Shown piece after piece: positions 7,853-35,845 of a stretch of 64,000 nucleotides of DNA. Both the position numbers and the translations under genes were made by a program. The stretch covers positions 992,001-1,056,000 of the forward strand of contig OZ245003.1 in NCBI GenBank assembly GCA_965223425.1, written 5' to 3'. Source of the DNA: Nitrosopumilus sp. GTDB lineage: Archaea; Thermoproteota; Nitrososphaeria; Nitrososphaerales; Nitrosopumilaceae. The notes beneath the pieces were generated by a model. That model saw nothing but the letters and a program-made list of their open reading frames with translations. It was not told the DNA's origin and made no database searches. Within the stretch, counting starts at the first letter, position 1, and every line of letters starts with the position of its first letter.

Positions 7853-8086
7853 ATGTAGGGGAGCAGGTGCATGGATCCTGGGACGAACGGGATGTGGTCA
7901 GGCCGAGTTATGCAACACACTACCGCATGCGCGTCTTGTTGCACTATCGGCGCGGCGCTCAGGGAAGCAGTGTTAATTGATCGCTGAGCGTATAGATTTT
8001 CAATCCAGAGAAGATCCATATTTCAGGTCACCATAACGTTACAGAACCAGCAAAACTAATAATTAAATACAGATTTTACCTAATAT

Positions 8087-33371: not shown

Positions 33372-33560
33372 ATTTAACTATTTCCCATGAAGGTTCTGTG
33401 AAGTTATCGGGAGTTAACCCCTATAACTCGACTTTGACATATCGGCTATTCGGATTGCCAATGGTGTGCCGGATTCCGTCATCGCCGGCTCAAAAGTGCC
33501 GGACTGCGCTTCACATATGTCATCTCTACTGCCCCTAAACCTGGGGGGCAGCTTGCGTGA
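33372..33560 (-). ncRNA. Putative omegaRNA (scaffold plus ~20-nt guide) overlapping the tnpB 3' end
   Basis: Minus-strand stems ctgcccc/ggggcag, tgacatat/atatgtca and ccggc/gccgg, and a terminal hairpin using the TIR. Position matches known TnpB omegaRNAs. Confidence 0.6.
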
Positions 33561-34682
33561 TATGTTGTTCATGGCAGCGACAATATCCCTGTCCATAAAC
33601 AAACCGCAATTATTACACGACAGTTTACGATGCTGTTGCATGTCCTCTTGGAGTCTCTTTCCGCATTGCGGACACTGCGTGCTCGTGTTTCTTGGGTCTA
33701 CATATTCGACTGGCGGGAGCCCGACCCATCGGGCTTTGTATTCTATTTGGCGTTGCAGCTCGTAGAATTGCCACCCGTTCAATCTGCGCCTGTACTTGTT
33801 GCCCTGACCATTTCCTTTTTTGTAGAGTTTTCTAACTCCTTTCAGGTTTTCTAGAACGATTGCAGCCTTTTCTTTGACGGCATTATCCACAATATCCTTT
33901 GATATTCTGTGGATGTACTGCCTTGCTCTGTCAGTCATTCTTCGCTGTTTTATCTTCCAGAACTGGTTTTTCTTCCTGCGGTCATTTCTGTGGAAGCCTG
34001 CCCTGGCGTGTACTGTGTTCTCCTTTATGGATAACAGTTTGTTTGTCTTGCAGACTGTCACCCCTTCCTCGCTCCCACACGTCACATTTCTTAGGTTTCT
34101 GTCTATTCCAACTTTCTTGGTGCACTCTATCTCTTGTACTTTTTTTGAAACACAAAGACTGATGTTGAGGGCAGTCAGTGAAAACGAGCGCACCGTCAGG
34201 GCGGGATCAGACAGGATTTTTTGGGTGTGATCGTTGAGTAAGATGTTGATTGTGTTGTGTTTCTTGTATGGGATTGTTAGTAGTGCACCGTTGTGTTTTA
34301 TGCCGTAACAGTTTGTCATAAAGGGATTTTTGACTATTGGGTCTCTTATTCTGACGCCTCGTTTGACTGATTGTTTTCTGTTTGATAATATGCCTGCAGC
34401 TCTTGATATTGCACATATCTTGTATGACGATAAAATGCCATAGTTACGCAATTCGTGACAACATAACATGGACAGCCTCTTCATATTGTGAGTGTCTTCT
34501 TTCAACCCTATCTTGATGCAATGATTGGCCATCTTTGTGAATGTAGCCGCCATATCCATTAGGTCAGAGTTTGGCGCATATTTCTGTGATATTGGCTTTA
34601 TCGCCTTCAGCGAATATCTTGCGGTTTGGAGGCTTGTACATTTTGGGAATTGACATGTAACTCCCGATAACTTCACAGAACC
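33392..34682 (-). mobile_element. Non-autonomous TnpB-only element with 25-bp perfect TIRs and an 8-bp TSD
   Basis: TIR ggttctgtgaagttatcgggagtta at 33392-33416 with its exact reverse complement at 34658-34682; flanks cccatgaa (33384-33391) and cctatgaa (34683-34690). Confidence 0.88.
33414..34640 (-). CDS. tnpB: TnpB / Cas12f-like RNA-guided endonuclease
   Basis: RuvC-I VGIDRN, RuvC-II VLENL, Zn finger CPQC...CNNC, RuvC-III DRDIVAAMN. Start uncertain: the ATG at 34656 is out of frame and the first in-frame ATG is near 34559. Confidence 0.92.
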   Translation of the reverse strand, partial: CTSLQTARYSLKAIKPISQKYAPNSDLMDMAATFTKMANHCIKIGLKEDTHNMKRLSMLCCHELRNYGILSSYKICAISRAAGILSNRKQSVKRGVRIRDPIVKNPFMTNCYGIKHNGALLTIPYKKHNTINILLNDHTQKILSDPALTVRSFSLTALNISLCVSKKVQEIECTKKVGIDRNLRNVTCGSEEGVTVCKTNKLLSIKENTVHARAGFHRNDRRKKNQFWKIKQRRMTDRARQYIHRISKDIVDNAVKEKAAIVLENLKGVRKLYKKGNGQGNKYRRRLNGWQFYELQRQIEYKARWVGLPPVEYVDPRNTSTQCPQCGKRLQEDMQQHRKLSCNNCGLFMDRDIVAAMNNISRKLPPRFRGSRDDICEAQSGTFEPAMTESGTPLAIRIADMSKSSYRG

Positions 34683-34708
34683 CCTATGAATAAAAATACG
34701 TACGACAG

Positions 34709-35845
34709 TCAATCTGGATCTTCGTAATTTTCTTTCTTTTCGCCGCTGGAGGTACTCCCCCTCATTGGCTTCATCTTGCTTTTAAGAACATCCATTCTGG
34801 CTCTGTATCCTTCAGCATATTCCAGTTCTGATGGAACAAGTGTAGCCGGATGAATGAATCCCTGGCTTCTAATTGCCATCGCTTTCTTCGTTGCAATCTC
34901 TCTTATGTAGTCCCAGTCCGGAGTTGAGAATCCATCAAATGGACCTGTAAACTTTCCATTATGCATGCTAAACACCAATGACTCAACAATTGGAATGCAG
35001 AAATTTATAGTTGCAGCAGAATTTAGTTTTACAGGCATTAGTGGCATGTTGTGACTGCCTCTTGTATTTCCTGCTACATAATGGGGATTGTTAAAGACGC
35101 TGCCAACTTCTTCTGTTGCTGGAAATTTCTTTTGTGTTCTAACTAAACAGACTGGATCGTCTTTTCCAACATATGTTCCTGCAATGTTGTGCAGTCTGTC
35201 AGTTGATGCTGCAAGAATTGGCTCTCCATCTTTGGTGGTTACTGAGTCTACAACATATCTTCCCGGATACATTAATGCTGCCTCTATTGTTGGCTTGTCT
35301 TGCCATAATTCAAGTTCTGCAACCTTTCCCTCTTCAACATCCATGATGTTCATTTTTACGCCGCCTGCAAGACTCTTGTTAACAATCAATCCTGTATTGC
35401 TTAGCGAGTCTACAAACATTCTATAAATTGGATAATTGAATGCGCCCGGCTCTGTCTTGTCTGCTGCAAATACTGTAAATGCCTCGTTTGGCCTTTCCTC
35501 AAACTCCATTTCCGCAACTCCGGGACCCATCCCTTTTACGTTTCCCGAAAAAGAGTCTTTTAACAGGTCTTGTCCTGCGCCATACAGGCCCTCCTCTTTT
35601 GCGACTTGGGTTCCTGCCATGAATGCGTCCCATGCCAGTTTGTGAATTTGTTGATTGTCTACTCCATGTGTGTGAGACATTACAATATGTGTGTCATCTC
35701 CGCAATAACCAATGTAATAATCAATTAGCAAATCTGCTGAATTTTTAACGGTGCTTCTAACTGCATCAAGCAGTCTGTCACTTGGTTTTGTGTGACCTCC
35801 AACTCCTCCCACATCTGCTTTGATAACTGAAACTGTAATCTTCAT
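34709..35845 (-). CDS. fbp: Fructose-1,6-bisphosphate aldolase/phosphatase (class V)
   Basis: IKADVGG, GDD, LYGAGQDLLKD, DKTEPGAFN and YVGKDDPV motifs. Confidence 0.96.
   Translation of the reverse strand: MKITVSVIKADVGGVGGHTKPSDRLLDAVRSTVKNSADLLIDYYIGYCGDDTHIVMSHTHGVDNQQIHKLAWDAFMAGTQVAKEEGLYGAGQDLLKDSFSGNVKGMGPGVAEMEFEERPNEAFTVFAADKTEPGAFNYPIYRMFVDSLSNTGLIVNKSLAGGVKMNIMDVEEGKVAELELWQDKPTIEAALMYPGRYVVDSVTTKDGEPILAASTDRLHNIAGTYVGKDDPVCLVRTQKKFPATEEVGSVFNNPHYVAGNTRGSHNMPLMPVKLNSAATINFCIPIVESLVFSMHNGKFTGPFDGFSTPDWDYIREIATKKAMAIRSQGFIHPATLVPSELEYAEGYRARMDVLKSKMKPMRGSTSSGEKKENYEDPD

Follow-up and report, generated by a model that had tools for sequence, protein, structure and literature searches.

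A 1291-bp element in the genome of Nitrosopumilus sp. (assembly GCA_965223425.1, contig OZ245003.1) carries a TnpB nuclease gene between terminal inverted repeats of the type found on IS6-family DDE transposons. Judged from its sequence, the element is probably a non-autonomous IS6-type transposon with a TnpB-omegaRNA module as its sole cargo. Copies and related elements almost always lie directly behind one three-letter motif, a placement suggesting that TnpB aids their persistence or spread.

The element, its insertion site and its copies

The element was located in a 64,000-nucleotide stretch of the contig (the window), where it occupies positions 33392-34682 and contains the following features:

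33384..33391, no strand: target-site duplication beside the TnpB 3' end (cccatgaa), of which relatives have one such 8-mer
33392..33416, plus strand: arm of the terminal inverted repeat on the TnpB 3' side, which is the right end when read with TnpB; the TAA stop makes up its innermost 3 nt
33414..34676, minus strand: TnpB gene, 420 codons if it starts at a GTG within the left repeat, with RuvC residues D192/E276/D364 and a CxxC..CxxC zinc finger
34658..34682, minus strand: other arm of the terminal inverted repeat, on the TnpB 5' side, which is the left end when read with TnpB; the two arms are complementary over 25 nt, and contigs break at 34682
34683..34690, no strand: target-site duplication beside the TnpB 5' end (cctatgaa)

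The two 25-nt arms, with tips GGTTCTGT, are 100% complementary, and the 25-mer occurs in the window at these two positions only (expectation from 100 shuffles, 0). The flanking 8-mers are identical at 7 of 8 positions. In five relatives with flanks of 79-87% identity the locus is unoccupied; fbp there adjoins a 137-codon gene, with a single CCTA(A/T)AA-like 8-mer. The perfect repeats and the 8-bp target duplication of the original prediction were thus both borne out. Metagenome contigs had their breakpoints exactly at 33392 and 34682, the edges of the element. In three DNA-type runs (X1, X3 and X5) no contig linked 33391 to 34691 and no empty/occupied polymorphism showed at the locus, a gap that by itself proves nothing about the empty allele. 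That the inverted repeats directly abut the open reading frame, as had also been proposed, is true of the copies in this genome but not of sister subfamilies, in which the left repeat and the TTG start are 57-99 nt apart and the stop and the right repeat as much as about 110 nt.

The sole long frame of the element (minus strand, 33414-34712) encodes its only gene, an intact-looking TnpB. It matched PF07282 (Cas12f1-like/TnpB TNB domain) at 2e-20. Among solved structures, TnpB/Cas12f chains were matched with values from 7e-11 to 3e-6, including the ISDra2 TnpB structures 8exa and 8h1j; Cas12f nucleases were the best PDB sequence matches and are the closest solved relatives. The predicted RuvC triad and zinc finger were recovered: across 26 copies and relatives, no change was seen at D192, E276 and D364 (numbered on the 420-aa reading P0001) or at three of the zinc finger's four cysteines. 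Values of dN/dS between 0.06 and 0.32 among copies and subfamilies indicate that TnpB is under purifying selection across subfamilies. In most subfamilies the left end itself contains a TATA-like box and a TTG start. Given that in the copies of this genome the ancestral TTG is replaced by CTG and the TATA-like box is altered, expression in this genome is uncertain. In the RNA-library run X10, contigs fell on 33392-33750, 33892-34107 and 34195-34594 with 90-99% likeness, and one 695-nt contig spans the right-end junction of some copy; such contigs are unable to show transcription, strand or ends.

The repeats and duplications recur elsewhere, in line with the original prediction. Searching the genome for the 25-mer with up to 3 mismatches returned 26 matches, compared with 0 for the reversed control. 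There are eight full-length copies of 1291 bp, each with an open 422-codon frame, plus derivatives, and perfect 8-bp duplications surround five copies (four of the eight full-length ones and a 2399-bp derivative). All 14 matches to PF07282 on the chromosome lie inside such elements. Across the class Nitrososphaeria, 77 of 301 genomes had a TnpB match, and relatives at 44-62% identity, from other genera and one other family, also displayed GGTTCTGT ends and 8-bp duplications. The 44 TnpB elements collected comprise 33 with perfect 8-bp duplications and three more with 7/8 identity. Another 15 loci found class-wide were not counted, as their candidate 8-mers (up to 2 mismatches) were near the level expected by chance for an 8-mer.

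IS6-type ends and proposed mobilisation in trans

The ends of the element (GGTTCTGTGAAGTT..., 25/25) combine GG tips, a CTGT motif and 8-bp duplications. The same GG tips, CTGT/cTGTt motif and 8-bp duplications define IS6 ends in the sections of Varani 2021 (PMC7986276) covered here, in agreement with what had been predicted; the 'caaa' motif of the family is not present as such in the element ends. IS6-family transposase genes (PF13610, DDE_Tnp_IS240) of this genome and of relatives have ends that share the first 16-19 nt. Among them is L076, a complete element of 1970 bp whose repeat matches at 24/24 positions and which has CTATTGTG as its duplication and a PF13610 frame of 403 codons; its first 18 nt are those of the TnpB elements L055, L063 and L069. 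In the Nitrosopumilus sp. genome itself, the end beside a transposase remnant at 793017 has 16 nt in common with the window element, a figure that rises to about 24 nt for a second TnpB subfamily (1781136, 2433495), and the end at 2470372, together with its 141-bp mini-elements, has up to 19 nt in common. A second end was looked for at the IS6 remnants at 793017 and 918405 of this genome, and none was found. The Nitrosopumilus sp. genome has only partial transposase genes and no complete IS6 partner with identical ends. The expectation that a DDE transposase would share these repeats consequently held for their first 16-19 nt, but not for a complete partner within the genome, and the copies of this genome may now be stranded.

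Y1 TnpA (PF01797) gave 0 matches in this 99.99%-complete genome, with a control in which the profile matched in 6 of 14 known genomes. Because IS6-family transposons of this and of related genomes have matching ends, the proposed movement of a non-autonomous TnpB element in trans by an IS6-like DDE transposase is supported rather than shown; the 8-bp duplications and the lack of a Y1 TnpA point the same way. Since TnpB is the only gene and a DDE_Tnp_IS240 transposase is missing, the element counts as a derivative that has kept ends of the IS6 type, and not as a member of the family in the strict sense. Its TnpB is flanked by inverted repeats common to a DDE transposon, as in DDE-associated TnpB branches; the inverted repeats, the target duplication and a genome devoid of Y1 (HUH) TnpA set it apart from the IS1341 group of IS200/IS605.

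Compared with IS6/IS26 (PMC7986276, sections covered), the element has similar GG-tipped short repeats, a CTGT motif and 8-bp duplications, and DDE_Tnp_IS240 transposases with the same ends are present in this and in related genomes. Unlike IS6/IS26, it contains no transposase and carries a 420-codon nuclease with a guide-RNA scaffold. The same sections record one passenger-carrying IS6 member and two mini-elements and do not mention TnpB (PMC7986276). The autonomous relatives identified here are 2.0-3.9 kb long and encode transposases of 370-400 codons with an extra SWIM-like zinc finger, whereas a typical IS6 element measures about 800 bp and encodes 220-250 aa.

DDE transposons with TnpB are known. 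Six DDE-associated TnpB branches with inverted terminal repeats (DDE-1 to DDE-6) are presented by Altae-Tran et al. 2023 (PNAS, PMC10691335), along with solo TnpBs that bear the same ends as transposase-bearing elements and were presumably moved in trans. As in DDE-1 to DDE-6, the TnpB studied here lies within symmetrical inverted repeats, with its 3' end less than 250 bp from the transposon end. However, the main text of that paper names IS630 alone and not IS6, and its sections covered here describe no TAM imprint at insertion sites. The portions of a 2026 review (PMC13565253) used here give ISL2, IS630 and IS1031 as DDE-type partners and do not name IS6. A prior description in print of TnpB with IS6-type ends or of a TAM imprint was not found in the literature searched, most subscription journals lying outside that search. 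To call the partnership little-described, as the original prediction did, is fair, but undescribed it is not, TnpB in DDE transposons with inverted repeats having already been published (PMC10691335).

The omegaRNA scaffold and its predicted guide

Two RNA features were assigned at the right end:

33392..33552, minus strand: omegaRNA-like scaffold, backed by covariation and comprising a hairpin and a long-range helix, the conserved block AAUCC..GUCGAUAUGUCAAAGUC and then a terminal hairpin
33372..33391, minus strand: predicted omegaRNA guide template, 20 nt that directly follow the right end when read with TnpB (TTCATGGGAAATAGTTAAAT) and begin with the 8 nt of the target duplication

Covariation argues for an omegaRNA scaffold overlapping the TnpB 3' end, which is new in this analysis. 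It comprises 17 pairs, 11 of them with compensatory changes, and pairing was retained in 95.7% of cells, compared with 27-49% when the structure was slid; 0 of 500 shuffles scored as high. The terminal hairpin, formed in 10 of 11 folded subfamilies, incorporates the central part of the inverted repeat, with AGAACC remaining unpaired. Rfam contained no matching family, the single match (E 0.23) being attributable to chance. It seems that the scaffold continues across the right inverted repeat, in which case the guide would consist of the duplication and the adjoining flank. We infer this template because the scaffold reaches the end of the element and because TTR abuts the duplication on its 5' side (see below). 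A fixed internal guide, i.e. the 16-20 nt right after GUCGAG, was also considered and set aside, given that in all but one of the 11 folded subfamilies this segment is base-paired to the inverted repeat and that TTR abuts the duplication.

In its size of about 400 aa, its RuvC triad and zinc finger and its scaffold overlapping the 3' end of the gene (omegaRNA/reRNA), the module resembles IS1341-type TnpB of IS200/IS605 elements, e.g. ISDra2. Similarly to ISDra2 TnpB, its guide is predicted to derive from DNA just outside the right end and its TAM to lie 5' of the left end. IS200/IS605 elements, however, have asymmetric hairpin ends, neither inverted repeats nor duplications, and a TAM that is the target site of TnpA, whereas the element has IS6-type ends, an arbitrary 8-bp duplication, a predicted TAM outside that duplication and a genome without Y1 TnpA.

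The nuclease might also be a passenger without present function, either an IS1341-type TnpB trapped once between IS6 ends or a host regulator with a fixed guide. The loss of the TTG start and TATA-like box in the copies of this genome and the lack of a transposase with identical ends would suit such a passenger, to which we nevertheless assign a very low probability. Selection across subfamilies is purifying, the catalytic residues do not vary, the RNA scaffold shows covariation, and the association with IS6-type ends is kept down to 44% protein identity across genera. Moreover, the one-sided TTR described below calls for an explanation that involves orientation, and a fixed internal guide is at odds with the terminal hairpin, which places AGAACC at the extreme end.

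The motif beside insertions and a possible homing role

In the window copy, one further feature lies outside the left end:

34691..34693, minus strand: TAM-like TTA (minus-strand reading), immediately 5' of the duplication

Directly 5' of the left-end duplication, T at -10 followed by R at -9 (mostly as TTR) was present in 42 of the 44 TnpB elements, a one-sided imprint on insertion sites and not a cleavage assay. The corresponding count was 7 of 44 for the mirrored right side (Fisher 5e-15) and 6 of 36 for the sides of TnpB-less IS6-type elements (Fisher 8e-14), this control being a modest set of 18 elements with duplications. Genome-wide, the frequency of TR is 0.13. The T-R imprint looks like a putative TAM that would let TnpB cut the empty site. 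Cas12f nucleases recognise T-rich 5' PAMs of the TTTR/NTTR type, which TTR resembles; unlike Cas12f, the TnpB gene is transposon-borne and multicopy and comes with no CRISPR array or adaptation genes.

A T-rich motif could have an origin unrelated to TnpB, such as a site preference of the insertion machinery or a host promoter or terminator in AT-rich intergenic DNA. Left flanks are indeed AT-rich at -20 to -10, the T-run in the window is a likely fbp terminator, and T-R also occurs beside TnpB-less elements, but the latter count is close to the genome-wide frequency. The motif is furthermore one-sided although both repeats are identical, and from identical repeats a transposase would be unable to sense orientation. 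Left-side neighbour genes lay at distances of 0-585 nt, 16 of them co-directional and 15 divergent, and one case had no such neighbour; as orientation and distance vary this widely, T-R is not tied to a neighbouring promoter. As most subfamilies bring a start codon and a TATA-like box of their own within the left end, an outside promoter would be unneeded, and a promoter or initiator reading of T-R was set aside on these grounds. Altogether, we see only a slim chance that the motif arose independently of TnpB.

Alternatively, guide-free TnpB might recruit or position the IS6 transpososome beside TTR through its TAM-binding surface, with no later selection by homing. Such steering would account for the exact spacing, the motif abutting the duplication in 42 of the 44 elements, and for its confinement to TnpB-carrying elements. 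It also has a precedent in Cas12k-type CRISPR-associated transposons, in which a guide-RNA nuclease steers the transposase and which are likewise named in PMC10691335. Here, however, TnpB and transposase are encoded on separate elements and neither an interaction domain nor a fusion was seen, while exact adjacency already follows, with no added assumptions, from a guide that begins at the first base beyond the end. We therefore regard steering as unlikely.

The reading that we prefer is homing. DDE transposases of the IS6 family, with their genes at other sites of the same genome or in a co-resident one, would bind the shared ends, insert the element and create the 8-bp duplication. The omegaRNA would be transcribed through the right inverted repeat, folded as the terminal hairpin, and its guide would be the 8-nt duplication with the adjoining flank. 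With TTR as TAM, an unoccupied copy of the chromosome or incoming DNA would present a perfect TnpB target (TTR-duplication-flank). The occupied site would be immune, as the target at the right end is preceded by AGAACC and the left end matches the guide by 8 nt only. Cutting of the empty allele followed by repair from the occupied allele would then copy or retain the insertion, and the survivors would be those copies that had landed beside TTR in the right orientation. A homing role was reportedly proposed for IS200/IS605 TnpB by Meers et al. in 2023. IS6 elements are thought to move copy-in, without excision, according to the sections of PMC7986276 covered here; restoration of a donor site would thus be unneeded, and homing would require a second, empty copy of the chromosome.

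Tentatively, and with rather less assurance than we attach to the IS6-type nature of the element, we propose that TnpB-omegaRNA is a standing cargo of IS6-type DDE transposons in ammonia-oxidising archaea. It would serve as a homing or drive device, with a guide starting with the 8-nt duplication and a TTR TAM restricting cuts to unoccupied sites, and it would be so decisive that about 95% of surviving copies adjoin TTR in the correct orientation.

The arrangement would be a prokaryotic counterpart to the capture of Fanzor by transposons with terminal inverted repeats. Bao and Jurka are said to have described Fanzor nucleases in such eukaryotic transposons in 2013. Common to both are a TnpB-family nuclease in duplication-making DDE transposons and a guide RNA that reaches the transposon end. 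The host here, in contrast, is archaeal. In Fanzor the 5' duplication is part of the TAM, according to the portions of PMC13565253 used here, whereas in the present elements it is predicted to form the opening 8 nt of the sequence targeted by the guide, with the TAM 5' of it. Inflexible target recognition may, according to the same portions, explain the rarity of TnpB-DDE pairings in prokaryotes (PMC13565253). A concrete and testable answer to how TnpB can serve transposons with arbitrary target sites and target duplications is offered by these elements, in the form of a short TAM, a guide with the duplication as its beginning, and an insertion record of TAM-adjacent copies only. The IS6 family would gain a cargo type, and the module adds a compact archaeal nuclease of about 400 aa with a covariation-backed RNA scaffold and a predicted TTR TAM. 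If homing holds true, these insertions would be the first natural read-out of the benefit of TnpB for a DDE transposon with arbitrary target sites.

The focal element and its insertion site

The focal element (33392-34682; 1291 bp) has one long open reading frame, on the minus strand, which encodes TnpB and gives the sense in which left and right ends are named here. It is bounded by two inverted repeat arms.

Inverted repeats of the focal element
33392-33416: inverted repeat arm, 25 nt, perfectly complementary to the other arm
34658-34682: inverted repeat arm, 25 nt, perfectly complementary to the other arm

The 25-mer is absent elsewhere in the window (none is expected by chance), and directly outside the arms lie cccatgaa and cctatgaa, identical at 7 of 8 positions. 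The original prediction of a 1291-bp element with perfect 25-bp terminal inverted repeats (25/25 complementary) and an 8-bp target site duplication thus agrees with what is seen at both ends. The neighbouring genes encode an archaeal class V fructose-1,6-bisphosphatase (fbp; PF01950, 6e-153) and, on the other side, a 137-codon membrane-like ORF. In five congeneric genomes, whose flanks are 79-87% identical, these genes are adjacent to each other, and the unbroken spacer between them contains a single CCTA(A/T)AA-like 8-mer; the 8-mer was therefore duplicated upon insertion.

Matches to the frame include the TnpB/Cas12f TNB domain (PF07282, 2e-20) as well as solved TnpB and Cas12f chains. Across 26 copies and relatives, three of the four zinc-finger cysteines never vary, nor do D192, E276 and D364 (numbered on the 420-aa reading), consistent with the expectation that the element encodes only a TnpB with its RuvC acidic residues and zinc finger. 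The dN/dS ratio, calculated after trimming 20 columns from the start of the alignment and 75 from its end, is 0.06-0.25 between TnpB subfamilies and 0.32 between two copies of the window's genome, which indicates, as judged from sequence, that the nuclease is maintained. The further claim that the repeats abut the ORF holds for the window's genome, as the frame stays open up to a GTG within the left repeat, but not for most subfamilies, which have their own TATA-like box and a TTG start, 57-99 nt in from the left end. At the left end of the window-genome copies (34600-34682 in the window) CTG stands in place of the ancestral TTG start, which sister subfamilies keep, and the TATA-like box has become TACAAG.

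Copies, relatives and IS6-type transposases

The window's genome comprises a 2.51-Mb chromosome (C1) and a 123-kb second contig (C2). Searching it with the 25-mer gave 26 matches at up to three mismatches, compared to 0 for the reversed control. Eight copies are exactly 1291 bp long, each with an open 422-codon frame, two further copies are broken by IS630-type (DDE_3) insertions, two are diverged, and one more has been reduced by deletion to 344 bp. The inner repeat is different in a second TnpB subfamily (1781136, 2433495). Perfect 8-bp duplications, looked for at other copies, were found at five, namely one interrupted copy (2292571-2294969) and four of the eight that are 1291 bp long. Every one of the 14 chromosomal PF07282 hits falls within such an element; C2 (46.9% G+C, against 41.2%) has three additional TnpB-domain genes. 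Y1 TnpA (PF01797) was not found in this 99.99%-complete genome.

Several rearrangements were observed alongside. Two inverted copies (C1:1325308-1326598 and C1:1451399-1452689) have exchanged 8-bp flanks that are mutual reverse complements, which points to an inversion of about 126 kb through recombination between them. An IS630-type element with a 371-codon DDE_3 transposase is inserted in two TnpB elements and an IS6 transposase gene (C1:594234-596770, 2292571-2294969 and 2470410-2472267). Two large elements bounded by IS6-type repeats, C1:1201385-1208237 (6853 bp; duplication 8/8) and C1:256390-260474 (4085 bp; 7/8), contain a number of further ORFs, transposase-like and cargo, and resemble composite or nested transposons. 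Solitary IS6-type ends lie in the window at 8048 (minus strand, GGTTCTGTAACGTTATGGTGACC...) and 17390 (minus strand, GATTCTGTTGTGTTATCGTGTG...); no partner was found near them and no transposase in the window, and ends resembling them are present at other places in the genome. A loose pattern search also picked up 186-nt periodic repeat arrays on C1 (GGATCTGTAATGTCGA...; e.g. 539837-540581, 712449-713193 and 2226747-2227491), probably tandem domains of large surface proteins. In metagenome run X1, the element is covered about 12 to 55 times as deeply as its flanks. Metagenome contigs stop exactly at 33392 and 34682, then run into several different flanks. One contig of run X5 links both repeats (window 33413 to 34661), omitting 1247 bp, and represents either a mini-element running from repeat to repeat or a deletion derivative.

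A public Nitrosopumilus MAG chromosome has at least 34 loci of this TnpB at 64-90% identity, in elements of 1262-1408 bp that form several end subfamilies; all ends begin GGTTCTGT or near-identical, and 20 of 30 paired elements have perfect 8-bp duplications. Class-wide, TnpB matched (E <= 1e-10) in 77 of 301 sampled genomes and 28 of 67 genera. A GGTTCTGT-type repeat pair surrounds the gene in 14 of 29 loci fetched from this search (one of these loci, L090, is from an unpublished genome, G133), and such pairs extend to relatives 44-62% identical in other genera and one other family (L081, L100, L106).

An 8-bp duplication, GG-tipped repeats of 15-20 bp and a cTGTt motif are the features by which Varani et al. 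(2021; PMC7986276) define IS6 ends, and the focal ends fit that definition. IS6-type transposases (PF13610, DDE_Tnp_IS240) gave 8 matches in the window's genome, all partial-looking versus full-length relatives (the best covering residues 42-375 of 379), and occur in 54 of the 151 genomes sampled from the family. Complete elements, supported by Pfam, were found at other loci.

Complete transposase-bearing IS6-type elements with perfect duplications
L076: 1970 bp, 24/24 repeat
L111, L114, L116: 2454-2680 bp
L152, L154, L158, L160: 2825-3867 bp

The first 18 nt of L076 are identical to those of three TnpB elements of the same genome (L055, L063, L069). In the window's genome, an end at 793017 beside a transposase remnant has 16 nt in common with the focal element and nearly the whole repeat in common with the second TnpB subfamily, and for the 2470372 end and its mini-elements the shared stretch is up to 19 nt. 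From these shared ends, past mobilisation in trans through an IS6-type enzyme, as originally proposed, is well supported as history. The autonomous elements (L111, L114, L116, L152-L160; 2.0-3.9 kb) are far larger than the bacterial IS6 norm of roughly 800 bp; they encode transposases of 370-400 codons with a SWIM-like zinc finger at the N terminus, and have small accessory ORFs alongside.

A one-sided T-R next to the duplication

Each of 44 TnpB elements with defined ends was oriented by its TnpB, and the bases directly 5' of the left-end duplication were scored.

Bases 5' of the left-end duplication, with controls
T at -11: 29/44
T at -10: 43/44
R at -9: G 24, A 19
T(-10)R(-9) jointly: 42/44
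34691-34693, minus strand: the motif in the window, TTA
Mirrored position at the right end of the same elements: T-R 7/44
Sides of 18 TnpB-less IS6-type elements with duplications: T-R 6/36
Genome-wide T-R frequency: 0.13

The two misses are L106 (TTT) and L086, where the duplication is absent and the flank rearranged; leaving out the row from the unpublished genome gives 41/43. The TnpB-less control set is modest in size (nine elements of the window's genome, 4/18 sides; eight from other genomes, 2/16; L076, 0/2), and Fisher tests gave 5e-15 versus the mirrored right end and 8e-14 versus the TnpB-less elements. Because the repeats are identical and a transposase would have no obvious side cue, a one-sided motif that follows TnpB orientation points to the nuclease.

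T-R as a host promoter was considered and not followed, since the neighbours vary, most subfamilies have internal starts with their own TATA-like box and TTG, and the TnpB-less elements of this modest control set show no enrichment. Of 32 elements, 16 have a co-directional nearest gene on the left side and 15 a divergent one, 0-585 nt away; the remaining element has none.

A predicted omegaRNA and the standing of the finding

The last ~160 nt (TnpB sense) align over 15 diverged elements and form two helices of 17 pairs, 11 with compensatory changes; 95.7% of the cells are paired, compared to 27-49% with the partner slid, and 0 of 500 shuffles attain the covariation score. The helices are followed 3' by a conserved block ending AAGUC, a variable segment (8 to ~90 nt) and the inverted repeat. 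Folding from block to element end covered the 11 subfamilies with the anchoring motif, which was not found in three further ones (L081, L100, L087). In 10 of the 11, bases after AAGUC pair with the mid-repeat and close a hairpin or branched stem, leaving ~6-8 nt ending AGAACC single-stranded at the extreme end; L051 folds differently. An Rfam search with the scaffold returned no model. We read the scaffold as a putative omegaRNA, the guide RNA of TnpB, that would be transcribed through the repeat, so that the guide would begin with the base immediately beyond the element.

Such a guide would begin with the duplication, and at an unoccupied site TTR, the 8 nt and the right flank would line up. 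T-R would then lie exactly where the target-adjacent motif (TAM) must be. An occupied site would escape, with AGAACC ahead of the target at the right end and a match of only 8 nt at the left end.

TnpB captured by a DDE transposon with terminal inverted repeats is already known: Altae-Tran et al. (2023; PMC10691335) describe DDE-associated TnpB branches with such repeats and solo TnpBs sharing them, naming IS630, and a 2026 review (PMC13565253) gives ISL2, IS630 and IS1031 and regards pairings of this sort as rare in prokaryotes. TnpB is not mentioned in the available portion of the IS6 review (PMC7986276), nor are TnpBs in IS6-type elements in those of the thaumarchaeal and archaeal mobile-element surveys (PMC6563490, PMC13343696). 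In line with the suggestion of a little-described partnership, our literature search, whose scope lay outside ISfinder and the PMC10691335 supplements, found no paper on TnpB with IS6-type ends. As far as could be checked, the IS6 partnership, its breadth in Nitrososphaeria and the RNA reading through the repeat are thus new. We infer the mechanism behind the observation; within the same limits, the one-sided TTR imprint itself is the foremost of the new points.
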